From an uncultured Clostridium sp. (GTDB taxonomy: Bacteria > Bacillota > Clostridia > TANB77 > CAG-508): DNA of 64,000 nt. The translations under genes were made by a program, and so were the position numbers. The notes beneath the pieces are model-generated. The model had not been told where the DNA came from. It made no database searches and saw nothing but the letters and a program-made list of their open reading frames with translations. Positions within the stretch are counted from its first letter, which is position 1. Each line of letters begins with the position of its first letter. The DNA lies in NCBI GenBank assembly GCA_905213875.1, contig CAJMJN010000001.1, forward strand, positions 59,940 to 123,939. Direction: 5' to 3'. Below, piece after piece: positions 6,799 to 56,147 of the stretch.

Positions 6799-8814
6799 TT
6801 GGAAAGGAAGGATTCTAAAATGAAGAGTAATAAAGTAATTTCAAAAATAGTAGCAAGTACATTGTTATGCTCAATGGTAGGTTATACACTTCCTGTATTT
6901 GCATATACAAAAGATGAAACAGTATATTCAAAATTAGATAGTGAAGGGAAAAATTATAAAACAATAGTTAGTACACATATAGAAAATAGTGAATATGCTG
7001 ATACAATAAATGATATGTCAGATTTACTAAATATAAAAAATACAAGTGGTGATGAAACATATACACAAGATGGTAATAAATTTGTATGGAATGCAAATAA
7101 AAATGATATTTATTATCAAGGTGAATCAGAAAAAGAATTACCAATAGAGTGTGAAGTAAAATATGAATTAGATGGAAAAGAAGTTTCTGCAAATGAAATT
7201 GCAGGAAAAAGTGGAAAAGTAAAAATAACTTTACAATATAAAAATAAAGAAGAAAGAACAATTAATATTAATGGTAAAGATGAAAAAATGTATGTGCCAT
7301 TTGTAGTTGTTGCTGGAACTATTATAAAAAATGAAAATGCAAGAAATATAGAAATATCATCTGGTAAAGTAGTAGATGATGGAACAAAAACTGTAATAGT
7401 TGGTATGGCAATGCCAGGTTTACAAGAAAGTTTAGGAATTTCTAGTGATGAAATTGATATTCCAAATAATATAGAAATTACAATGGATGCAACAAATTTT
7501 GAAACAAGTAGTATAATGTCATATGTCACACCTAAAGTTATAGAAGAAGACGATTTAACAATATTTGACGATTTAGACGAAATGTATAATAAAGTAAATA
7601 CTTTACAAAGTTCTATGAATCAAATTCAAGATGGGGCAAACACATTAAAAGATGGAACAACAGAATTAGAAGCAGGTGCAAATACTTTAAAGAATGGTGT
7701 TAATACAGCATATAGTGGAGCTCAAACAATAACATCAGAAGTAGAAAAATCAACACAAAGTTTAAAAAATGATAATTCAGAAGCTTTAGATAATGCAACT
7801 TTAGAATCAATAAAAAAACAAGCTGCTGAAAGCAGTAAATTAACAGATGAACAAAAGGCACAAATAAAAGCTCAAGCTCAATCAGGCGCAACATTAACAC
7901 AAGAACAAAAAAATCAAATTTCTGCACAAGCTAAAGCAAAAGCAGTATTAACAGAAACACAAAAGACACAAATAACAGCAGTAGCAAAACAAGGAGCAGT
8001 ATTAACAGATGCGCAAAAAGCACAAATAAAAACACAAGCTAAAGAAAAAGCAGTATTAACAGATGCACAAAAAACACAAATAATAGCAAATGCACAATCA
8101 GCATATCCAACAACACTAACAGAAACAGAAAAAGCATTAATACTAACAACAGCTCAAAATACAGCAACACAAACAGCAGTGGCAACAGCACTAGAAACAG
8201 CCCAAAGCACAGCAACCAAAACAGCAGTAGCAACAGCATTAAATGTAGCGCAACAAATAGCAACACAGACAGCTGAAACAACAGCATTAGAAACAGCACA
8301 ACAAATAGCAACACAAACAGCAATAACAACAGCATTATCAACAGCTCAAAGTACAGCAACTACAACAGCAATGCAAACATCAACAACAGTTGCAAAACAA
8401 GTTGGAAATCAAGCTAAAAAAACATTTACAAATAAAGTAGTCTCACAAATGAGTACATTAGGAAATGGTTTAAATCAATTAACATCTGGCTTATCAGAAT
8501 TAAATAATGGAGCTACAACATTAGCAAATGGAACAACTCAAATTAATGATGGAGCAACAACTCTAGCAGATGGAATAAAAACATTTAATGAAGAAGGAAT
8601 CGAAAAAATCTGTAATTATATAAATGGAGATGCCAAAGATTTAACTACAAGAGTTGAGAAATTAACAGAATTATCTAAAGAATATAACAATTTTACAATG
8701 CTAGACGGAGAAAATTTAGGAGAAGTTAAATTTATTATGATTATTGATGCAGTAAAACAACAAACAGAAAATGAACAAAATAAAGAAGAAGCAATAGTAG
8801 AAGAAAATAAATAA
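6799..8814 (+). CDS. Secreted YhgE/Pip-like repeat protein with an N-terminal signal peptide and no C-terminal transmembrane domain. Carries Ala/Thr/Gln-rich tandem repeats.
   Basis: Signal peptide KIVASTLLCSMVGYTLPVFAYT. Pip-type TLKDGTTELEAGANTLKNG and LTSGLSELNNGATTLANG heptad segments. Six 18-aa LTDAQKAQIKTQAKEKAV-type repeats and four 15-aa TAVATALETAQSTAT-type repeats. Confidence 0.6.
   Translation: MERKDSKMKSNKVISKIVASTLLCSMVGYTLPVFAYTKDETVYSKLDSEGKNYKTIVSTHIENSEYADTINDMSDLLNIKNTSGDETYTQDGNKFVWNANKNDIYYQGESEKELPIECEVKYELDGKEVSANEIAGKSGKVKITLQYKNKEERTININGKDEKMYVPFVVVAGTIIKNENARNIEISSGKVVDDGTKTVIVGMAMPGLQESLGISSDEIDIPNNIEITMDATNFETSSIMSYVTPKVIEEDDLTIFDDLDEMYNKVNTLQSSMNQIQDGANTLKDGTTELEAGANTLKNGVNTAYSGAQTITSEVEKSTQSLKNDNSEALDNATLESIKKQAAESSKLTDEQKAQIKAQAQSGATLTQEQKNQISAQAKAKAVLTETQKTQITAVAKQGAVLTDAQKAQIKTQAKEKAVLTDAQKTQIIANAQSAYPTTLTETEKALILTTAQNTATQTAVATALETAQSTATKTAVATALNVAQQIATQTAETTALETAQQIATQTAITTALSTAQSTATTTAMQTSTTVAKQVGNQAKKTFTNKVVSQMSTLGNGLNQLTSGLSELNNGATTLANGTTQINDGATTLADGIKTFNEEGIEKICNYINGDAKDLTTRVEKLTELSKEYNNFTMLDGENLGEVKFIMIIDAVKQQTENEQNKEEAIVEENK
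7843..8380 (+). repeat. Intragenic tandem repeats inside the 6799-8814 gene: 54-bp units about six times, then 45-bp units about four times.
   Basis: Periodic LT(D/E)xQKxQI and TAxxTALxxAQ units in the translation. The DNA is visibly periodic. Confidence 0.6.
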
Positions 8815-9070: not shown

Positions 9071-11509
9071 ATGTTTCAAAATATAAATGAAGATACAATA
9101 GAAATAAATAATAAAGCTGAAAAAGCAAAAAGAAATGTAAACATATTCTCAAATGTTTTAACAAAGGAAAATCTAGCAATATATGTGGTGGCATTTATGA
9201 TGTCACTAGTAGGCATTGGTGGAGATTTTTCAATATTTAGTATAAGTGTGTTAGGTGCTTGTTTTGCATCATCTGTTCCAGCATTAGGGGTAGTGGCAGT
9301 TTCACTTTTAGGAAACTTTATTAAATTTGGTGTTGGTGGAGGATTAGGTTATTTTTTAACAACACTAGTTTTAATAATAACATTATTTATATTTAAACCA
9401 CGTTATAATGAAGAAGAACGAAATGAGAAAATAAAAATAGGAAAAAACGTATTTATAGCAACATTACTAATTCAAATTGTAAAAATAGCAATGGCACAAT
9501 TTACATTATATGATGTACTTGCATCAATAACATTATCAATAATAGCATTAGTATTTTATAAAATATTTGTAAATTCTATTGTAGTAGTTCAAGAATTTTA
9601 CGAAAAAAGAGCATTTTCAATTGAAGAAGTTATAGGTGCTAGCTTAATGCTTGCAATAGCAGTTGGAGGAATTGGAGATTTTAGTGTAGCAGGATTTAGC
9701 ATTAGAAATATATTAAGTATATTAATCGTTATGGTACTTGGCTGGAAAAATGGAATGTTAATAGGAACAACATCAGGTGTTACAATAGGTGTAACATTAG
9801 GAGTAATAACAAATTCAGAGCCAATTATGATAGCTGCATATGCAATTTCAGGAATGATAGCAGGTATATTAAATAGATTTGGGAAAATAGGTGTAGTTGT
9901 AGGGTTTGCACTTGGAAATATATTGTTAGCATATGTTGCAAATGGATATACAGTAGAATTAATACATTTTAAAGAAATACTAATTGCATCAATAGGATTA
10001 CTTTTTGTTCCAAAAACATTACAAATTGATATAGAAGAATTTACAGGAAAATCAAAATTATTGCCTTCAATGTCAGATAGAGCATTGAACAAAAGCAAAG
10101 AAGTTGCAGAAAGTTTAAACAATGTATCAAATGCAATAAACGAAATGGCTACAACATATAGAGGACAAGACGATTTAGATGCAGTTGAAAAAGACAATAT
10201 TAGTTCAGACGAAAATAAAGAAATTTTTATAGGTGAATTATTAAATAATTTAGAACCTTATAAAGACAATATGCTATATGACGATATTGCTAAAGCAGAT
10301 GGAGAGATAGACAACGAGATTTTTGAATTATTATTAGAAAAGCAAGAAATAAGCAGAAAAGATTTATTACAAATATTTGCGAATTGTAATAGTTACATAG
10401 TAGGTGCAGAAGATAACAAAATAAGCAAACAATTAGAAGACAATATAATGCAAATTGTTAGAACTATAAATGTTTCATACAAAGTTGCAAAATCTAATTT
10501 TATCTGGAAGAAAAAAGAAGAACAAACTAAAAAGAACATTAGTAATCAATTAAAAAATGTATCTAATGCTATAAAAAGTATGGCAAAAGATATAGAAAAA
10601 GACATAAAAGCAGAAGAAAAATATCAAGCAGAAAGATTAGAAATAGTAGATTTATTAAGACAAAAAGAGATAGAAGTTCAAGATATAATGATAAAAAAAG
10701 ATAATAGATTTATAGTTGAAATATATCTAACTAGATTACTTGAAAATACTAAACTAGAACAAATTGCAGAAATATTAACAAACATTTTAAAAGAACCAAT
10801 TGTATTAAATGCTGAAGCAACAGTAGGCAAAAAAATAGTATATTTATCAGACGATAAATACATAATGGCAATTGGAATGGCACAAGAAACTAAAAACAAC
10901 AGTAAACAATCAGGTGATAGTATATTAAATATACGTTTAAAAGATGGAAAATATTTAGTTGCAATTAGTGATGGAATGGGAAGTGGAAAAGAAGCTAAAA
11001 ATAGTAGTAACCAAACATTACGACTATTAGAAAATTTGCTAGTATCAGGATTTGATAAAAAAGCATCTTTAGATTTAATAAATAATGCTTTAATGAATCA
11101 AAACAAAGAAACATTTGCAACTCTAGATATAGCAATTGTAGACTTATATGAAGGAAATGTCGAATTTATTAAAAGTGCAGCTTGTCCAACATATATAAAG
11201 AAAAATAAAAGAGTTCAAATGATAAAATCGAATTCATTGCCAACAGGAATATTAGAAGAAAGTAAATTAGAAACATTTGACAAAGATATAAATGATGGCG
11301 AAATTGTAGTGCTATGTTCAGATGGGATTCTAGATTCTAATGTAGAATATAAGAATAAGGAATTGTGGATAAAGTATTTGTTAGAAGATATAGAAACTAC
11401 CAATACGCAAAAGATTGCTAATTTAATTTTGGAAGAGTCTGTTGATAATAATTATGGTATTGCAAAAGATGATATGAGTGTAGTTGCATTTAAATTTAGA
11501 CAAAAGTAG
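9071..11509 (+). CDS. spoIIE: Stage II sporulation protein E (SpoIIE), a PP2C-type serine phosphatase
   Basis: About ten N-terminal transmembrane helices and a C-terminal PP2C domain (AISDGMGSGKEA ... VLCSDGILD). GAGGTGG ribosome-binding site before the ATG at 9071. Confidence 0.9.
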   Translation: MFQNINEDTIEINNKAEKAKRNVNIFSNVLTKENLAIYVVAFMMSLVGIGGDFSIFSISVLGACFASSVPALGVVAVSLLGNFIKFGVGGGLGYFLTTLVLIITLFIFKPRYNEEERNEKIKIGKNVFIATLLIQIVKIAMAQFTLYDVLASITLSIIALVFYKIFVNSIVVVQEFYEKRAFSIEEVIGASLMLAIAVGGIGDFSVAGFSIRNILSILIVMVLGWKNGMLIGTTSGVTIGVTLGVITNSEPIMIAAYAISGMIAGILNRFGKIGVVVGFALGNILLAYVANGYTVELIHFKEILIASIGLLFVPKTLQIDIEEFTGKSKLLPSMSDRALNKSKEVAESLNNVSNAINEMATTYRGQDDLDAVEKDNISSDENKEIFIGELLNNLEPYKDNMLYDDIAKADGEIDNEIFELLLEKQEISRKDLLQIFANCNSYIVGAEDNKISKQLEDNIMQIVRTINVSYKVAKSNFIWKKKEEQTKKNISNQLKNVSNAIKSMAKDIEKDIKAEEKYQAERLEIVDLLRQKEIEVQDIMIKKDNRFIVEIYLTRLLENTKLEQIAEILTNILKEPIVLNAEATVGKKIVYLSDDKYIMAIGMAQETKNNSKQSGDSILNIRLKDGKYLVAISDGMGSGKEAKNSSNQTLRLLENLLVSGFDKKASLDLINNALMNQNKETFATLDIAIVDLYEGNVEFIKSAACPTYIKKNKRVQMIKSNSLPTGILEESKLETFDKDINDGEIVVLCSDGILDSNVEYKNKELWIKYLLEDIETTNTQKIANLILEESVDNNYGIAKDDMSVVAFKFRQK

Positions 11510-26497: not shown

Positions 26498-27061
26498 ATG
26501 AAAGATTTAAGAGTACAAAGAACATACATTTTATTAAAAGAGGCTTTTTTTAAATTACTAGCTAAAAAGCCTTTCGAAGAAATCAAAGTTAATGACATAT
26601 GTAATCTTGCTATGATACATAGAACAACTTTTTATCATCATTTTCAAGATAAATATGATTTACTAGAATTTTGCATTCAAGATGTTGAACAAGAATTAGT
26701 AACTAATATAACTAAAAAAAGTTATCAAAATATTCAAGAATTTTATTCTAATTTAGTAACTAGTTTATTAGAGTATATAGCTGATAAAAAAGATGTTTTT
26801 GTTAATATTTTAAAACATAATTCTAAAAGTTCTTTAACTGAAGTATTTTTAAATACTTGTGTTAATTACATATCTTCTAGGTTAAAAAAGGAATATCAAC
26901 AAGGGATTTATCCTATTGCAGATATAGATGTTATATCTCATTTTTATTCAGGGGCTGTTCTTTCAACCATTGTATGGTGGCTTGAGTCTAATAGTTCTAT
27001 GTCTGAAGCTGAACTTTGTGATATGATTATTAATTTAATTTTTAAAGTTCCTAAGAAATGA
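26498..27061 (+). CDS. TetR/AcrR family transcriptional regulator, divergent from the YhgE/Pip gene
   Basis: TetR helix-turn-helix EAFFKLLAKKPFEEIKVNDICNLAMIHRTTFYHHF. Confidence 0.8.
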   Translation: MKDLRVQRTYILLKEAFFKLLAKKPFEEIKVNDICNLAMIHRTTFYHHFQDKYDLLEFCIQDVEQELVTNITKKSYQNIQEFYSNLVTSLLEYIADKKDVFVNILKHNSKSSLTEVFLNTCVNYISSRLKKEYQQGIYPIADIDVISHFYSGAVLSTIVWWLESNSSMSEAELCDMIINLIFKVPKK

Positions 27062-27065
27062 AAAA

Positions 27066-27104
27066 AACGATAAAATGCTAATTTTTAACATTTTATCGTT
27101 TTTT
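27066..27104 (+). terminator. Rho-independent terminator of the tetR gene
   Basis: AAACGATAAAATG-N11-CATTTTATCGTTT followed by TTTTT. Confidence 0.55.
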
Positions 27105-27117
27105 ATTGGAGGCGACA
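27103..27117. repeat. 15-bp direct repeat TTATTGGAGGCGACA, distal copy; candidate attachment-site remnant
   Basis: Identical 15-mer at 30123-30137, where it covers the 3' end (CCA end plus 4 nt) of tRNA-Cys. Confidence 0.5.
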
Positions 27118-27244
27118 GTCAGGTTGAGTGTATCCTGTATTCCTCTTGTATTCTGTACTTTTGTGTTGAAAAAACCTTATTTTAACACATTTTTAACCCA
27201 ATAATTATTTTATATAACATATTGTAACACACTCTAAAAATTCA

Positions 27245-27274
27245 TTGACAAATAATTTAATTAGGGTGTATAAT
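27245..27274 (+). promoter_or_regulatory. Near-consensus sigma-A promoter, TTGACA-18-TATAAT
   Basis: TTGACA at 27245-27250 and TATAAT at 27269-27274. Confidence 0.5.
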
Positions 27275-27281
27275 ATAGATA

Positions 27282-27367
27282 GAAAATGAGAACACAAATA
27301 ATGTGTGTTACCTAAAAAGTTAAGTATACACCGCTAGCTCTGTGAAAGCGTATGTGGTGTATTTTTT
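27282..27367 (+). ncRNA. Candidate small RNA of about 85 nt driven by the consensus promoter. Two hairpins and an intrinsic terminator. Antisense to the 3' end of the convergent small-peptide transcript.
   Basis: AACACA-aataa-TGTGTT hairpin, then GTATACACC...GGTGTAT and a U-run. No open reading frame. Confidence 0.4.
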
Positions 27368-27473
27368 ATTGTTGCTTATTTGATAGTATTATGTATATAA
27401 CACTTAATAAGGCAACGTTTATAGTTATTGAAATCATAAATCCTATTATTAAGAACATTAAAAAATCTAACAT
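27366..27473 (-). CDS. 35-aa hydrophobic peptide MLDFLMFLIIGFMISITINVALLSVIYIILSNKQQ; candidate type I toxin
   Basis: Strong Shine-Dalgarno GGAGGTGGTG 5 nt before the ATG. One transmembrane helix and a polar tail. Convergent and overlapping with the small RNA. Absent from the ORF track because it is shorter than 60 aa. Confidence 0.4.
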   Translation of the reverse strand: MLDFLMFLIIGFMISITINVALLSVIYIILSNKQQ

Positions 27474-27841
27474 ATAAACACCACCTCCAATCTCTCAACT
27501 ATTGTTGAGGAATTAAAGGTAACACCCACATCTGCTTTTATCTCATTTCCTATGTAAATTATATTACAACATTTTTCTATAAAAAACAAGCGAACATTAC
27601 AAACTTTTGCAAATTATTAATGCCTATCATTGTATCATATAAAATGTAATATTCATTAAGTAGTCTTAATATACTTCCCAAAATTCTTAAATATAGTTCC
27701 AAAATCATTTTATTTAGAAATACAACAAATTATACATCTATATACTAAAATTGAAAATAAGTTCTTTAAAAGATTTAATAATAATTATATATATTATAGT
27801 TTTTACTGTATATTCATTAATATATATTTTGAGATTATATT

Positions 27842-29044
27842 TTAAAATGGCAAATCTGCAAAGTCGGTATTATATTTTTCTAATCTTCCTTGTAAATTTT
27901 GTTTTATTATTTCTCGTTGTTTATAGTTACAATTATTTAACCAATCAATACTTTGTAATATTAAAGAAGTTGGAATAGTATAAATGTCATAACATTCGCC
28001 ATCATATTGATTCCATCCAGTTGAGCTTTCGTTTACCTTTACCACTTTCCCAAAAAAGCATTCAGCAAAGTCCTTATTATTTAGTACTTTATCTTCTAGA
28101 CAATATTTTACTGAAATAGCTTCTAATTTTTGAATAATTACATTTATTTCATTGACGTTTGTACCATATTCAACGCTTTCAATTGTTTCATCTAATTTTT
28201 CAACAATTTCTTTATAAATATCCTTTTCATCTTGACTAAAAATAGCCTTATTCCTAAGTTCTTTTTCAGACATTTTGTTTTGTACTTCAGCAAATGAATT
28301 TATTCTATTTGAAACATTATATTCTATCATTTCATTAAGTACGGAGAAATATCTAAAGTTTTTTATATTATTTTCTTCAATTATTTGTTTAATTAATTGA
28401 CCTACAAAATAGATTTCAGTTTTATTATTATAAATTGGTTCATTATCATCTCTAGTATTCATTTCACTTGGTAGATTTGCAATCCAATTATTTTTATATA
28501 AAGTTAATGGGCTTACATTATTATCTGTAGAATATCTTTTTCCAAATCCAAAATCAATTATTTTCACAATACCATTTGAATTAATAAGAATATTATTGCT
28601 TCTTATATCACGATGGCACAGTTTATGTTGTTCCAAATAACAAAATCCACTTATTATTTGTTCAAAAATATTATTAAGTGTTTCCGTATTATTTCCTATA
28701 TATTCATTTAAACTTTTAGCATTTTCAACATATTCCATAATTATATAGCCTACTTGTTCATTTGGATATATATAATTATTATATATTCTTACAATATTCG
28801 GATGAACAATTTTATTTAAAATTTTTACTTCAGAAATAAATTTATCAAAATATCGTTTTTTTTCGTTAGTATCGGTTATAGTTATACTAGGTTCATACTT
28901 CTTACAGGCATATAATTCATCAATAATTTCATCTTTAATTAAAACTGTTCTTGAAAAAGAACCTGCCCCTAGATTTTGAATAAATTTATAGTCTTTAGCT
29001 CTTATAAACGGTATTATATCCCCAGATTTTAATTCTTTTTTCAT
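27842..29044 (-). CDS. Eukaryotic-like Ser/Thr protein kinase with an uncharacterized C-terminal domain of about 190 aa
   Basis: Glycine loop LGAGSFSRT, lysine in YACKKY, catalytic loop HRDIRSNNILI, and DFG. The C-terminal half has no recognisable motifs. Confidence 0.75.
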   Translation of the reverse strand: MKKELKSGDIIPFIRAKDYKFIQNLGAGSFSRTVLIKDEIIDELYACKKYEPSITITDTNEKKRYFDKFISEVKILNKIVHPNIVRIYNNYIYPNEQVGYIIMEYVENAKSLNEYIGNNTETLNNIFEQIISGFCYLEQHKLCHRDIRSNNILINSNGIVKIIDFGFGKRYSTDNNVSPLTLYKNNWIANLPSEMNTRDDNEPIYNNKTEIYFVGQLIKQIIEENNIKNFRYFSVLNEMIEYNVSNRINSFAEVQNKMSEKELRNKAIFSQDEKDIYKEIVEKLDETIESVEYGTNVNEINVIIQKLEAISVKYCLEDKVLNNKDFAECFFGKVVKVNESSTGWNQYDGECYDIYTIPTSLILQSIDWLNNCNYKQREIIKQNLQGRLEKYNTDFADLPF

Positions 29045-29256
29045 ATTTTTCCCCCTATTTTATTTATATATCATAGATATTTCTTTTTTTCAATATACTA
29101 CATATATAAGTCATGTATAATTTATGATATGATCACGGGAGTTTGACAGTTTTAAATTCAAAAAATCATTAAAAGCATTGAAATGTGTTACAAAATATGA
29201 TATATTATTTTGGTAGATAATAAAACTGACAATACGTAAAAAATAGGAGGAAAATT

Positions 29257-29779
29257 ATGGTTAAGTGTAAAACTAAAATTACTCAAAATGAATTAGATGC
29301 TTTAATAGAAATCCAATTATTAAGTAAAAAGAATAAAGAGAAAAGAAAGCTAGGTAGAATTGTATTTGTTGTATCAGCTATTCTGACGTTTTTGCTAGCG
29401 ACCAAAAGTTATTTTCATTATAATTTCGTAAGAGCAGTGATTTTTGGTGTTTTTTGTATATTCTCTGTATTTATGGCGACAGTTGGGGCAACATTAAAAC
29501 AAAAATTTATTTTAAAGAAAATGCAGAATAAAGCAGATGCAAAAATGAAATCGGGAGTAAGAGAATATGAATTCAGCGAAAAACGGAGTTACTATCGATT
29601 CTGAAACTGGACATACTAAAAGCAACTGGAATGCCTTTAAGTTATGGGGAATATATAAAAATTATATTTATGTGAGAAGAATTGATGATGGTATGATTCT
29701 TATAAATAAAAACGATTTATCAAATAGCGCGGCAGATGAATTAGAGGCTTTGCTGAATACAAATGTAAAAGAAGATTAA
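29257..29779 (+). pseudogene. YcxB-like protein (two transmembrane helices + bPH/PH-like domain) interrupted by a -1 frameshift at an A5 run, 29590-29594
   Basis: ORF 29257-29604 and ORF 29567-29779 overlap. Adding one A restores ...EYEFSEKNGVTIDSETGH..., which reads YcxB-like as one protein (KLWGIYKNYIYVRRIDDGMILINKNDL). Confidence 0.55.
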
Positions 29780-29883
29780 AAGAGGCCAATTATTGCTTAA
29801 AAATAAAATTTAATTGTACTAGAAATAGAATATTTATAGAATTAATATGAAGGATATTAAAAAAATAATTTGAATTTATGAGG

Positions 29884-29912
29884 TATTGAAATAATCAATA
29901 CCCCTTTTTTAT
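29884..29912 (+). terminator. Rho-independent terminator
   Basis: GGTATTGA-aataa-TCAATACC followed by CCTTTTTT. Confidence 0.6.
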
Positions 29913-30082
29913 ATTATAGGAAAGTGCTCATTTTGAACAAAAAACATAATAAGAAAAAAGGCATCAATAAAAGAAGCCTTCAAGAAAAAATAGACTCCTT
30001 TAAGGGGTAGTGACTGACAATTGTAAAAGTCAGTCGCAAAGGCCACTTCAGTGGTAGCCAGTAGAGAAGCCTTTTAGGCGTA

Positions 30083-30110
30083 AAGGAAAAACCACCAGCT
30101 AAGCTGGTGG
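30083..30110 (-). terminator. Terminator downstream of tRNA-Cys
   Basis: On the minus strand: CCACCAGC-TTA-GCTGGTGG followed by TTTTTCC. Confidence 0.6.
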
Positions 30111-30122
30111 AAATTTATTACA

Positions 30123-30137
30123 TTATTGGAGGCGACA
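30123..30137. repeat. 15-bp direct repeat TTATTGGAGGCGACA, proximal copy that overlaps the tRNA-Cys 3' end
   Basis: See 27103-27117. Confidence 0.5.
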
Positions 30138-30200
30138 CCCGGATTCGAACCGGGGATCGAGATTTTGCAGACCTGTGCCTTACCACTTGGCTATGTCGCC
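30127..30200 (-). tRNA. tRNA-Cys (anticodon GCA)
   Basis: Manual fold: acceptor stem GGCGACA/TGTCGCC, anticodon loop CUGCAAA, T-arm CCCGG-TTCGAAT-CCGGG, CCA encoded. One C-C mismatch at the base of the anticodon stem. Confidence 0.75.
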
Positions 30201-30233
30201 ATAATTTTATTTACTTATAGAGTATATATTTTT

Positions 30234-30308
30234 TGGAGCAGGTAACGAGAATCGGACTCGTGACTAAACCTTGGCAAGGTCTCGTTTTACCACTAAACTA
30301 TACCTGCA
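30234..30308 (-). tRNA. tRNA-Gly (anticodon GCC)
   Basis: Acceptor stem GCAGGTA/TACCTGC, anticodon loop UUGCCAA, T-arm ACGAG-TCCGATT-CTCGT, CCA encoded. Confidence 0.85.
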
Positions 30309-30505
30309 TATTTCAGATTTTAACCTTCGCCTTGCCAAGGTTATTTTTTCTGATAAATATTATTTTTTAATTCTTTTATATACTATGCACTAGCATTTAA
30401 AATAATACCAAAAATCCACCATATTGTCAAGTATTATGGTGGATTTTCTTGTAAATCCTAAGTAAAATTCCCTTTTATATTTATAAGTATTTTCAATTCT
30501 AATAT

Positions 30506-36165: not shown

Positions 36166-37038
36166 CTAAGCAGAGCCTTGTATTTTTCTTTTTTGAACTT
36201 TATATGTTATTTTTGCAACAAAATTTGATGGTGCTATTTTCGCTCCAAATCTTGCTAGTTTTACATCAATTCCAGGTACTATATAAAACTTACCTTTTTC
36301 TAATTTTCTAATTGCATATTTTGCAACCTGCATACTATTAGCCTCTCTTAAGCTAAATTTTACATTTGCAACTTTGTTAAAATTTGTTTCTACTGGTCCT
36401 GGACATAATATGCTTATTTGTACTTTTGATTTTTCCTTTTTTAATTCTTCTCTTATTGCCTCTGATATCCTAACAATATAATTTTTTGTAGCATAATATG
36501 TTGCCATTAATGGGCCTGGCATAAATCCTGCTATTGATGCTACATTTAATATTTTTCCGCTATTTTTCTTTTTCATTTCTTTTAAATATAATTTAGTTAA
36601 AATATGGTATGCAATTACATTTGTTTTTATCATTGAAATATCTTTGTTTAAATCTGTTTCACTAAATCTTCCACAATCTCCAAAGCCTGCATTATTAATT
36701 AGTATATCAATATCTTTTACTTTATTTGCTAATTCTATGCAATTTTGTTCTTCACTTAAATCCATTTGAATTATTTCAATTTTGTTGGTTGCTTTTTTGC
36801 TATTTTTATATGCTTTTTCTATTTTGTTGGTTGCTTTTTTGCTATTTTTATATGCTTTTTCTATTTTATTATTTTCAATTGTTGGTTCGTTTTGAACTGA
36901 TTTTTCCAACTCTTTTTTGGTTTGTTCTAATTTTTCTATGTCTCTTGCTACTAATACTAAATTATATCCTTTTTGATTTAGTATTTTTGCCATATCTTTT
37001 CCTATTCCAGAAGATGCTCCTGTTATTAAAGCTTTCAT
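36166..37038 (-). CDS. SDR family oxidoreductase with an inserted lysine-rich segment that contains an in-frame 42-bp tandem duplication
   Basis: TGASSGIGKD Rossmann motif and YxxxK. The insertion reads NKIEKAYKNSKKATNKIEKAYKNSKKATNKIE. Confidence 0.8.
   Translation of the reverse strand: MKALITGASSGIGKDMAKILNQKGYNLVLVARDIEKLEQTKKELEKSVQNEPTIENNKIEKAYKNSKKATNKIEKAYKNSKKATNKIEIIQMDLSEEQNCIELANKVKDIDILINNAGFGDCGRFSETDLNKDISMIKTNVIAYHILTKLYLKEMKKKNSGKILNVASIAGFMPGPLMATYYATKNYIVRISEAIREELKKEKSKVQISILCPGPVETNFNKVANVKFSLREANSMQVAKYAIRKLEKGKFYIVPGIDVKLARFGAKIAPSNFVAKITYKVQKRKIQGSA
36786..36869. repeat. Perfect 42-bp tandem duplication (two copies) inside the SDR gene
   Basis: GTTGGTTGCTTTTTTGCTATTTTTATATGCTTTTTCTATTTT occurs twice in direct succession. 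Confidence 0.8.
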
Positions 37039-54772: not shown

Positions 54773-55096
54773 GTTTTTAATTATAACATATTTTTTCTTA
54801 AAAATAACATTCTTTTTCTAAATTTATTTCTCCTATATGAACATTTTTTCTTTTACAGTCATTGTTCTTTTGTTGTTTCTATTATTTATATATCTTTTGT
54901 ATTGTGTTTCCATAAAATTTTTCAAAAATAATTTATCATTTCATCCAATGCTTTAACACTACTCGATATGTTACTAATGAAGATCTTATTTTTGCATATC
55001 TTGTATCCCAAGAATGGATGAAAATAGTATATCCTGAATTTTCGTAATTTTATTAAGTTAAAACACAGCAAGTGATAATTCACTTACTGTGTTTTT

Positions 55097-55408
55097 TTAT
55101 TTTGATAACATTTCCAATATTTCTTTTTTATCAACAACACCTACTGATCTAGAAACTTCTTTACCACCTTTTATAACAACCAATGTTGGTATTGACATTA
55201 CTTTATAGTCTAATGCTATATTAGGATTTTCATCTACATTGACTTTAGCTACTTTTATATCATCATTTTCTTGTGCTATCTCGTCAACAATTGGCGCTAA
55301 CATTTTACATGGTCCACACCAATCCGCATAAAAATCAACTAGTACTGACATTTCACTTTGTAGTACTTCTGTTTTAAAATTATCGTTTGTTATTTTTTCA
55401 ATTTTCAT
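55097..55408 (-). CDS. trxA: Thioredoxin
   Basis: WCGPC active site. 103 aa. Confidence 0.9.
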   Translation of the reverse strand: MKIEKITNDNFKTEVLQSEMSVLVDFYADWCGPCKMLAPIVDEIAQENDDIKVAKVNVDENPNIALDYKVMSIPTLVVIKGGKEVSRSVGVVDKKEILEMLSK

Positions 55409-55576
55409 TTATCTTACCTCCATATACATTTTTATTTTATTATTTGCTATTTTTTATATACTATATACATAATTTTAAATTTATGCAATATATTTTTTTA
55501 TATTGTAATATTTTTTAATATTTTTCATATAATATATAAATGAGTTATAGTTTTCATGGTAATTTTGAAAAAACTA

Positions 55577-55606
55577 TTGACAAAATTAATATCTAGGTTG
55601 TATAAT
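55577..55606 (+). promoter_or_regulatory. Consensus sigma-A promoter TTGACA-18-TATAAT that drives tRNA-fMet
   Basis: TTGACA at 55577-55582 and TATAAT at 55601-55606. The tRNA starts 17 nt downstream. Confidence 0.55.
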
Positions 55607-55622
55607 TAATTTGTTGAAACAT

Positions 55623-55698
<76 letters not shown>

Positions 55699-55699
55699 C

Positions 55700-55730
55700 A
55701 AAGTTTAAAAACAAACTTTTACTTTTGGGT
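55700..55730 (+). terminator. Terminator after the tRNA
   Basis: AAAGTTT-AAAAAC-AAACTTT followed by TACTTTT. Confidence 0.5.
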
Positions 55731-55865
55731 AGATGGTTTTGCAATATCTTGCAGTTTACCAGAAAAGTAATAAGTAGTGTAAAAATAAGTTAAATAATTA
55801 TTTATTTAGCTTATTTTTTTTTTGCGTAAAATATTATTAGAATAATATAATAGGAGGAATTAGAA

Positions 55866-56147
55866 ATGAAAGAGAAAATAGATAAAACAACAGCATTAAT
55901 AAGATTATTGGAACATAATGAAGCAATTAGCATAATAGGTAAGAATAATCAAAGGATTAATAGCTTAAAAGATTTAAAAGGAAATTTTAAAAATATTATT
56001 GATTTATCTTATTCAATAAACATACTTTTAGATAGTTCAAATATAGAAGGATTTGATTTCTTAATTATGACGGTTTCTGATATAACAAAAATAGAAGAAA
56101 CTTTGACTGATTTGTTAGAAAAGCTAAAGGTATCACAAAATTTATAA
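55866..56147 (+). CDS. Hypothetical protein (island)
   Basis: AGGAGGAAT ribosome-binding site. First gene after the tRNA. Confidence 0.5.
   Translation: MKEKIDKTTALIRLLEHNEAISIIGKNNQRINSLKDLKGNFKNIIDLSYSINILLDSSNIEGFDFLIMTVSDITKIEETLTDLLEKLKVSQNL

Follow-up and report, generated by a model that had tools for sequence, protein, structure and literature searches.

What does a protein kinase do in a gut bacterium that carries it in some strains only, on a small insertion at a tRNA gene? The question is raised by a kinase gene in a 64,000-nucleotide stretch of an uncultured Clostridium sp. (assembly GCA_905213875.1, contig CAJMJN010000001.1, positions 59,940 to 123,939), here called the window, from whose first nucleotide all its positions are counted. 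An original prediction, made from the letters of the stretch, described a stand-alone Ser/Thr kinase with a novel C-terminal domain on a tRNA-flanked islet and compared it with abortive-infection kinases of the Stk2 type. Our analysis divides the protein into a Hanks-type kinase domain, an alpha/beta domain, and a flexible acidic tail, and it finds that the tail ends in a peptide of the type by which SSB, a protein that binds single-stranded DNA, recruits its partners. Our tentative answer is that this is an accessory kinase that would be tethered, by mimicry of the SSB tip, to the genome-maintenance proteins that bind that tip, and that would probably act against phages or other mobile genetic elements (MGEs).

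The tip of SSB docks in pockets on RecQ, PriA, ExoI, RecO, RecG, Pol III chi, DnaG, and other proteins. It reads DDDIPF in Gram-negative and DDDLPF in Gram-positive bacteria and is the peptide by which SSB recruits partner proteins (PMC5531588). The C-terminal part of the kinase, in which the original prediction had found no recognizable motifs, ends in a tip of this type (D-L-P-F-COOH), and so does the family at large: P-F is invariant at the true C terminus, with L, I, or V before it and usually two or three acidic residues ahead. Across 101 sequences with a mean column identity of 43%, neither P399 nor F400 varies. The ending [LIVMF]PF is present in 109 of 120 database matches (those without it are mostly fragments), in 78 of 79 full open reading frames (ORFs) from genomes, and in 141 of 149 representatives. 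For a control, ORFs of at least 80 amino acids (aa) were listed mechanically from the window and the homologue loci (1.47 Mb). Only 82 of these 3,092 ORFs end in [LIVMF]PF, and all 82 are kinase-family genes; the ending occurs in 0 of the ∼3,010 non-kinase ORFs.

Three beta-proteobacterial kinases (L032, L035, and L081) end in DFDDDIPF, the last 8 residues of enterobacterial SSB, and Firmicute kinases end in LDIDDDDLPF or FDIDNDDLPF. The published motifs with which these compare are MDFDDDIPF for enterobacterial SSB and the consensus IDISDDDLPF for Gram-positive SSB (PMC5531588). The linker between the last helix and the tip has 10 to 20 residues, is variable in length, and is composed of 19% D and 11% P. 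Its predicted local distance difference test (pLDDT) scores are lowered and reach 63 to 71 in the last residues, so that linker and tip repeat the design of SSB on a small scale. A CHC2 zinc finger of the DnaG type (PF01807) is fused to the N terminus of two members of the family (E = 2e-20 and 1.2e-36), and these fusions suggest, independently of the tip, a tie to single-stranded DNA (ssDNA) metabolism or replication. The tip itself suggests how the kinase may find its targets. No kinase with an SSB-type tail was found described in the literature searched, which is no proof of novelty. A beta-clamp-binding motif (QL[SD]LF type) was also considered for the tail and rejected, since Gln and Leu are missing from the needed positions and an acidic run with [IL]PF-COOH fits the SSB C terminus (SSB-Ct).

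We propose that an active, soluble Hanks-type kinase, carried on a 3-kb integrase-less cassette in some strains only, would be tethered by its tip to readers of the SSB tip. These readers may be host genome-maintenance enzymes or phage and plasmid replication and recombination proteins that hijack the host SSB. At sites of ssDNA metabolism the kinase would phosphorylate the tethered proteins or become activated by them. It would then work as a single-gene kinase triggered during infection, with a logic like that of Stk2. The gene, its intact motifs, the tip throughout the family and its agreement with host lineage, the mobility, and the neighborhoods are observed; the binding of the tip to SSB-tip pockets, the substrates, and the role in defense are what we infer.

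Several observations weigh against this proposal. The first qualifies a point in its favor: the choice between I and L in the kinase tip tracks the host lineage as it does in SSB, with LPF in 36 of 36 Bacteroidota/FCB kinases and all those of Firmicutes and IPF in 19 of 21 from Proteobacteria-type hosts (our tally), but the agreement is weaker than it looks. The neighbor-joining tree of the kinases largely follows host phyla, and the correlation was downgraded as independent evidence for that reason. L-type tips lie in several separate parts of this tree, where the identified hosts belong to the FCB group or Firmicutes save one, the alphaproteobacterial metagenome-assembled genome (MAG) L028, which has LPF. 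The comparison rests on published SSB tips by lineage (Flavobacterium and Psychroflexus, DLPF; gamma-proteobacteria, DIPF; Desulfotalea, DVPF; Table 1 of PMC3991886). The tip of the window protein (TDFADLPF) has one acidic residue in its last six and is less acidic than the canonical DDDLPF. Many neighbors of the family genes are ordinary housekeeping or metabolic genes, and the window gene itself is flanked by topA, tRNAs, TetR, and an ABC-2 permease. Finally, LPF alone sends GFP, as well as SsbA and SsbB, to ClpXP in Streptococcus mutans UA159, while it does not do so in Escherichia coli or Streptococcus gordonii; within S. mutans, only certain strains treat it as a ClpXP degron (PMC5143411).

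The last of these points leads to a different account of the tip, as chiefly a degron of the ClpXP type that would limit the amount of a kinase that may be toxic and that would resemble SSB since SSB bears the same degron. Unstable toxic effectors are indeed common in abortive-infection logic. We consider this account improbable, as S. mutans strains already differ in whether they recognize the degron, while more than 10 phyla share the kinase tip. The acidic run, the DFDDDIPF and DIDDDDLPF matches, and the lineage pattern of I and L also fit recognition by SSB partners rather than a degron of three residues.

The domain that precedes the tail was modeled by AlphaFold2 from 48 homologues with a pLDDT of 91.1 and a predicted TM-score (pTM) of 0.82. 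Its novelty, claimed at the outset, was borne out by the searches: it has no match in Pfam, PADLOC, or PHROGs and no sequence relative among solved structures, and Foldseek returned no neighbor, its best E values being 0.93 for PDB and 0.77 for BFVD. A profile of the domain run against 1.84 billion representatives retrieved 445 clusters at 50% identity, 360 of them with E ≤ 1e-10, and in the 150 best matches of this search the domain stands at the extreme C terminus. Stand-alone (∼152-aa) and ∼281-aa forms of the domain were rejected as architectures because they are truncated gene calls from the invariant Met239 and Met103, respectively. It follows that the domain hardly ever occurs apart from this kinase. 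A protein with an adh_short N terminus ahead of the domain (P0144) retains the end of the kinase C-lobe and was treated as a chimeric or deleted gene call.

The modeled structure also bears on the possibility that the tip acts internally or between subunits, in autoinhibition or oligomerization, with a likeness to SSB-Ct that would be convergent. The acidic tip of SSB can fold back on its own oligonucleotide/oligosaccharide-binding (OB) fold, which provides a precedent, and a short beta-strand at residues 392 to 394 of the kinase, just before the tip, packs on the C-terminal domain in the AlphaFold2 model. The low pLDDT of the last residues (63 to 71) and the core of the C-terminal domain, which is not basic (median net charge of −1), speak against such a contact. 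Neither the lineage switch between I and L nor the 8-residue identity with enterobacterial SSB is predicted by it, and we give an internal tip little credence.

In one 328-aa protein (P0258), the C-terminal domain, with a tail that reads ...EELPF(N), follows a non-kinase N terminus, for which there is a weak nucleoside 2-deoxyribosyltransferase-like match (PF05014, E = 3e-4). It may represent an effector swap on the same targeting module.

The window protein belongs to the Hanks-type kinase superfamily and has every motif that defines it. These are the Gly-rich loop (G26-A-G28-S-F), the beta3 Lys (K48, in ACKK), the alphaC Glu (E72), H144-R145-D146, N151, D164-F165-G166, an APE-like P192-x-E194, and the Arg partner R247. 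The G-loop, Lys, HRD, and DFG motifs, already read as intact in the original prediction, are conserved in the family, and the catalytic residues are invariant or nearly so among 101 homologues that are 33 to 99% identical to the window protein. From these motifs, the kinase is probably active. The ORF starts with ATG, 8 nt downstream of an AGGGGG ribosome-binding site (RBS). The Pfam PF00069 Pkinase match covers residues 19 to 189 (E = 4.4e-29; 102 bits versus a cutoff of 31.7) and ends at DFG owing to an unusual activation segment (KSISLNW is the family's motif). In the alignment and in the AlphaFold model (pLDDT mostly >85 in the kinase domain), the C-lobe is complete to about residue 256, with the APE-like P-x-E, alphaF, and the invariant R247. 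The additional module is therefore one of ∼135 aa (residues 269 to 390) followed by a 10-residue tail, and not the 190 aa first assigned to it. In the catalytic loop HRDIR (28601-28615, residues 144 to 148), an Arg that is nearly invariant across the family takes the usual Lys position. A Lys in HRDxKxxN is usual in Ser/Thr kinases, while an Arg in the catalytic loop is typical of tyrosine kinases. The HRDxR loop suggests that substrate specificity may not be simply Ser/Thr.

No transmembrane (TM) segment was found in the kinase (maximum 19-aa Kyte-Doolittle mean, 0.70), and the Pfam scan found no PASTA domain. The protein is thus predicted to be a soluble, cytoplasmic, stand-alone kinase, unlike PrkC-type enzymes, in agreement with the original prediction. 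An ordinary PknB/PrkC-like signaling kinase that lies near tRNAs by chance would account for two of the search results, namely the best match among solved structures (Staphylococcus aureus PknB, 4eqm; E = 3e-32, positions 10 to 282) and the top NCBIfam match, PknB_PASTA_kin. We regard it as very improbable. The NCBIfam match (NF033483) reaches 82.5 bits, far below its cutoff of 450, and covers residues 17 to 171 only. There is no adjacent PP2C phosphatase and no synteny of the housekeeping kind, for which a cell-division/rsgA neighborhood would be expected, and the gene lies inside a precise 3-kb indel. Assignment to the PASTA kinases was rejected on the same score, the missing TM and PASTA segments, and neighbors that comprise TetR, a putative YcxB-like pseudogene, and tRNAs.

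Searching 5.8 billion proteins with the kinase gave 1,445 matches at E ≤ 0.001, some of which are probably generic kinase-domain matches. Within the best 120 of the 1,445, full-length relatives (360 to 425 aa) outside the kinase's own clade have 33 to 47% identity and 80 to 100% query coverage. Relatives occur in Burkholderia, Paraburkholderia, Psychrobacter, and Bacteroides, where "protein kinase family protein" is the whole of their annotation. When one genome of each species was scanned, 415 candidate loci emerged, and the best 80 of these come from Clostridia, Bacteroidota, Proteobacteria, Campylobacterota, Spirochaetes, Planctomycetota, Acidobacteriota, Cyanobacteria, Actinomycetota, Chloroflexota, and one bin labeled Halobacteria. 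On this evidence, the kinases form a widespread (at least 80 species), uncharacterized family with a predicted novel C-terminal domain and an SSB-type tip. The exact window protein is present on many human-gut metagenome contigs. In contrast, tblastn of phage and plasmid collections found no family member, and among 2.9 million viral contigs of IMG/VR there are 3 true members, the remaining matches being generic giant-virus kinases. The near-absence from phages, plasmids, and viral contigs indicates that the kinase gene is cellular (accessory).

Contigs were assigned to the species of the window by a flanking TetR protein identical to its own. The interval from TetR to tRNA-Cys has four configurations within this one species: the kinase with YcxB (the window, L091), a 426-aa gene followed by the kinase with YcxB (L092 and others), a HAD hydrolase alone (L093 and others), and the 426-aa gene alone (L098). 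L092 equals L098 plus a precise insertion of 3,021 bp, and the alignment blocks of the two overlap by exactly a 15-nt direct repeat. This repeat, TTATTGGAGGCGACA, is perfect (15 of 15 nt) and has only two matches in the window, where 0 are expected (100 shuffles); occupied sites have two copies, and the empty site (L098) has one. At the empty site a hairpin terminator directly follows the tRNA, while in the window the terminator lies beyond the distal repeat. The precise insertion, the number of repeat copies, and the position of the terminator together show that the kinase lies on a real islet, 3.0 kb long and variable between strains, which arose by site-specific insertion. The islet of the original prediction is thereby upheld, although it is not flanked by tRNAs on both sides: these stand on one side only (30127-30307), and the other boundary is the 15-nt repeat. 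No integrase ORF lies within 27118-30122, and an Rfam scan of 26900-30500 detected the two tRNAs and nothing else. The coordinates of all features are collected in Table 1.

Insertion at tRNA genes recurs among the homologues. In L009 (84% identity), the kinase follows a tRNA-Gly/tRNA-Cys pair and is bracketed by a repeat of ∼55 nt (tRNA end and terminator) whose copies are 2,007 bp apart. In L089 (74% identity), a 17-nt repeat of the tRNA-Pro 3′ end brackets it, with 2,129 bp between the copies; L090, with an identical protein, has a resolvase/RadC/HTH region upstream instead. None of the genes flanking the kinase in the window lies within 10 kb of it in L009 or L010. A housekeeping family with conserved synteny had been named beforehand as the outcome that would speak against a defense-like kinase; what we found is homologues at 71 to 84% identity that share no flanking genes. 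All-against-all clustering of 990 neighbor ORFs from 79 loci detected no conserved partner gene, which agrees with a stand-alone gene, and no neighbor family is present in more than 8 of the 79 loci. The largest cluster, at 8 of 79 loci, consists of integrases. Shedu SduA recurs at 5 loci (convergent and overlapping in Burkholderiaceae) and Schlafen/AlbA-HATPase at 5. Further neighbors are a large helicase-restriction endonuclease, AbiLi, PARIS AriA, NsnB, DpdF, PsyrT, type IIG and MmeI restriction-modification (R-M) enzymes, a C5 methylase, Mob, and reverse transcriptase genes. The proximity to defense genes that was to be checked is therefore seen, often among the more distant homologues, with Shedu, AbiLi, PARIS, R-M, and integrase neighbors recurring beside the housekeeping genes. 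The kinase is a cellular accessory gene, often in defense or mobile neighborhoods.

The neighborhoods help to decide what a tethered kinase would be for. The same tether could belong to a regulatory checkpoint kinase for DNA damage, replication, or competence, which would tune host repair and would be no immune gene. Genome maintenance in a general sense is suggested by the SSB-type tip as well as by the fusions with the DnaG zinc finger, many neighbors are housekeeping genes, and there are parallels in YabT, which responds to DNA, and in the eukaryotic ATR-ATRIP, which is recruited to RPA-ssDNA. Bacterial Hanks kinases that act on DNA-related processes are the subject of a review (PMC4754617). 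A strain-variable presence, insertion at a tRNA, the absence of synteny, and defense or integrase neighbors would however be unusual for a core checkpoint component, and we judge a checkpoint role unlikely. Anti-phage or anti-MGE interference would be the most likely role of the SSB-tipped kinase because its distribution is mobile, strain-variable, and associated with defense islands.

A more far-reaching version, which we advance with considerable reserve, is that these kinases are a large, so far undescribed family of mobile single-gene immune kinases. Mimicry of the host SSB tip would serve as bait or tether, and phage or plasmid replication and recombination proteins that need the SSB tip of the host would capture the kinase in its place. 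The kinase would phosphorylate these proteins or be switched on by them, upon which the infection would abort. The tip would co-evolve with the SSB of its lineage, and the C-terminal domain would couple engagement of the tip to activation. Retron-Eco8, DARNA, Hna, and DRT10 are among the defense systems for which sensing of phage SSB is reported, partly in preprints. Phage-host conflict increasingly seems to center on SSB and on the proteins that bind its tip, and an SSB-tipped kinase family would, if our proposal is true, represent a new wiring of a signaling enzyme into the SSB hub. It offers a testable hypothesis for a family that in at least 80 species bears only a generic annotation. E. 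coli reagents are directly usable for this purpose, as some proteobacterial tips equal the last 8 residues of E. coli SSB.

Table 1. Features of the kinase islet and its surroundings in the window
Feature	Position	Strand	Basis or remark
Strain-variable 3.0-kb islet	27118-30122		Frameshifted YcxB-like gene, kinase, and small-peptide module
att-like direct repeat, copy 1	30123-30137		Comprises 4 nt and the 11 final nt of tRNA-Cys
att-like direct repeat, copy 2 (distal boundary)	27103-27117		Native terminator of the tRNA, displaced, comes next (27062-27104)
tRNA-Cys(GCA), integration target	30127-30200	−	ARAGORN; Rfam, 61.6 bits
tRNA-Gly(GCC), adjoining tRNA-Cys	30234-30307	−	ARAGORN, Rfam; same tRNA pair precedes the kinase in L009
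Kinase gene	27842-29044	−	ORF for 400 aa, with its stop codon
Hanks-type protein kinase domain, residues 16-256	28277-28999	−	Pfam, invariant residues, 4eqm profile match, AlphaFold2
Inter-domain linker, residues 257-268	28241-28276	−	pLDDT ∼64 at residues 261-270; poorly conserved
Alpha/beta C-terminal domain, residues 269-390	27875-28240	−	AlphaFold2 model; conserved Y277, L316-E317, F330, N383
Flexible acidic tail YNTDFADLPF	27845-27874	−	Final D-L-P-F-COOH is the SSB-type tip
YcxB-like membrane protein gene, split	29257-29779	+	+1 frameshift in the A5 run 29579-29583; PF14317 matches the second ORF
Small-peptide module	27366-27597	−	Promoter-like element, conserved leader, GGAGGTGGTG RBS, 35-aa ORF; alignment
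Consensus sigma-70 promoter antisense to the small ORF	27245-27274	+	12/12 match; candidate antitoxin RNA promoter

Two further elements share the islet with the kinase. The YcxB-like gene is split into overlapping ORFs of 115 and 70 aa, and deleting one A restores an ORF of 173 aa. The frameshift is real, since the same split is present in 8 independent metagenome contigs, and it would make the gene either a pseudogene or one read through a slippery run. The small-peptide module encodes a hydrophobic peptide of 35 aa, MLDFLMFLIIGFMISITINVALLSVIYIILSNKQQ (27366-27473, minus strand; Kyte-Doolittle mean, 2.5), which is conserved in L009, L010, and L093. A hairpin in the leader (−25.8 kcal/mol, z = −3.6) encloses its strong RBS, and the antisense promoter TTGACA-N17/18-TGTATAAT is perfectly conserved in L009, L010, L092, and L093. 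Copies of the module lie at 27245-27597 of the window, ∼11313-11652 of L009, ∼11421-11779 of L010, and 8452-8832 of L093. The arrangement resembles a type I toxin-antitoxin system, for which we regard it as a candidate. As the same module stands beside the unrelated HAD cassette in other strains, it may be a stabilizing or shared element of the cassettes.

The interval between TetR and tRNA-Cys is a hotspot for alternative or stacked single-gene cassettes across strains (L092, L093, and L098). The 426-aa cassette protein (L092, 7621-8901, minus strand) has no Pfam or PADLOC match; the HAD-family hydrolase cassette lies at 7636-8325 (minus strand) of L093. The locus documents a system of minimal integrase-less cassettes in gut Clostridia, by which cargo genes accumulate singly next to tRNA genes. 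In L009, a MAG of Clostridia from a wild mouse that holds the closest homologue from another species, the kinase frame (10001-11202) is broken into ORFs of 72 and 298 aa, which could be due to gene decay or an assembly error.

Elsewhere in the window, a short-chain dehydrogenase ORF (36166-37038, minus strand) encodes 290 aa compared with 276 aa in metagenome contigs of the same species. It contains the 14-aa unit NKIEKAYKNSKKAT twice in tandem, which suggests an in-frame duplication of 42 bp in this strain. GC skew and AT skew both change sign at ∼16 kb and again at ∼56 kb (55000-56000), a pattern that seems to track co-oriented gene blocks.

The comparison with known systems starts with SSB itself. 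The kinase tail and SSB-Ct have in common an acidic run, [I/L]-P-F with a free carboxylate, a flexible and variable linker ahead, and a choice of I or L by lineage. SSB differs by its OB fold and tetramerization domain, which the kinase lacks, and by a linker of 30 to 110 aa, while that of the kinase is much shorter (∼5 to 12 aa). Membership of the kinase in the SSB family was rejected, since it has no SSB or OB match in Pfam and its N terminus is a kinase domain.

The islet can be set beside the integrase-less tRNA islets that resemble cis-mobilizable elements (CIME-like). They likewise have repeats of the tRNA 3′ end at both boundaries, an empty sister site, and tandem accretion. The present islet differs in being very small, at 3 kb with one intact cargo gene. 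No relaxase, oriT, or integrase was identified in it.

Among defense systems with kinases, the best PADLOC matches of the window protein are mad6 (E = 7e-36) and PD-T4-6 (E = 8e-30), with MkoA also matched. Membership in these systems was rejected, as the matches cover only residues 16 to 176, from the N-lobe through DFG. PD-T4-6 is a single-gene kinase defense system of E. coli whose likeness to the present kinase is confined to the kinase domain, and in its best model, PDLC04047, profile positions 9 to 157 of 327 are matched. PD-T4-6 models are also reported to match a housekeeping enzyme, the universal PASTA kinase of Streptococcus thermophilus (PMC11514479). For Mad6 and PglW, the NCBIfam scores of 66.1 and 28.7 fall short of the cutoffs of 460 and 990, respectively, and both were rejected; the islet holds no methyltransferase, PglX, or PglZ gene that would be a partner in MADS or BREX.

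YabT of Bacillus subtilis is likewise a Hanks-type kinase tied to ssDNA and genome maintenance, and it acts on RecA and other proteins, an analogy that would hold for the present kinase if it is tethered as proposed. YabT, the product of a conserved gene related to sporulation, is anchored in the membrane and becomes active when it binds DNA directly. The kinase of the window differs in being predicted soluble and in being mobile, and its link to DNA metabolism would run via a peptide tip.

The closest parallel in organization is Stk2, to which the original prediction had pointed. No Stk2 model is found among the 25 best of the 33 PADLOC matches, and we know of no description of an SSB-type tip for Stk2. 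The likeness established here between the two kinases concerns the generic kinase fold and the architecture. Stk2, an abortive-infection kinase of Staphylococcus, is host-encoded; a phage protein activates it, and cell death follows from its phosphorylation of host proteins (Depardieu et al. 2016, summarized in PMC6532042 and PMC11341870). It is known from a few staphylococci, and its trigger is the phage protein PacK, whereas the present family extends over many phyla and has its own C-terminal domain and SSB-type tip. Both are nevertheless host-encoded, single-locus, soluble, and strain-variable Hanks-type kinases with a non-kinase C-terminal region, and the logic that we propose by analogy would be the same, namely activation that depends on infection, followed by phosphorylation of cellular targets.

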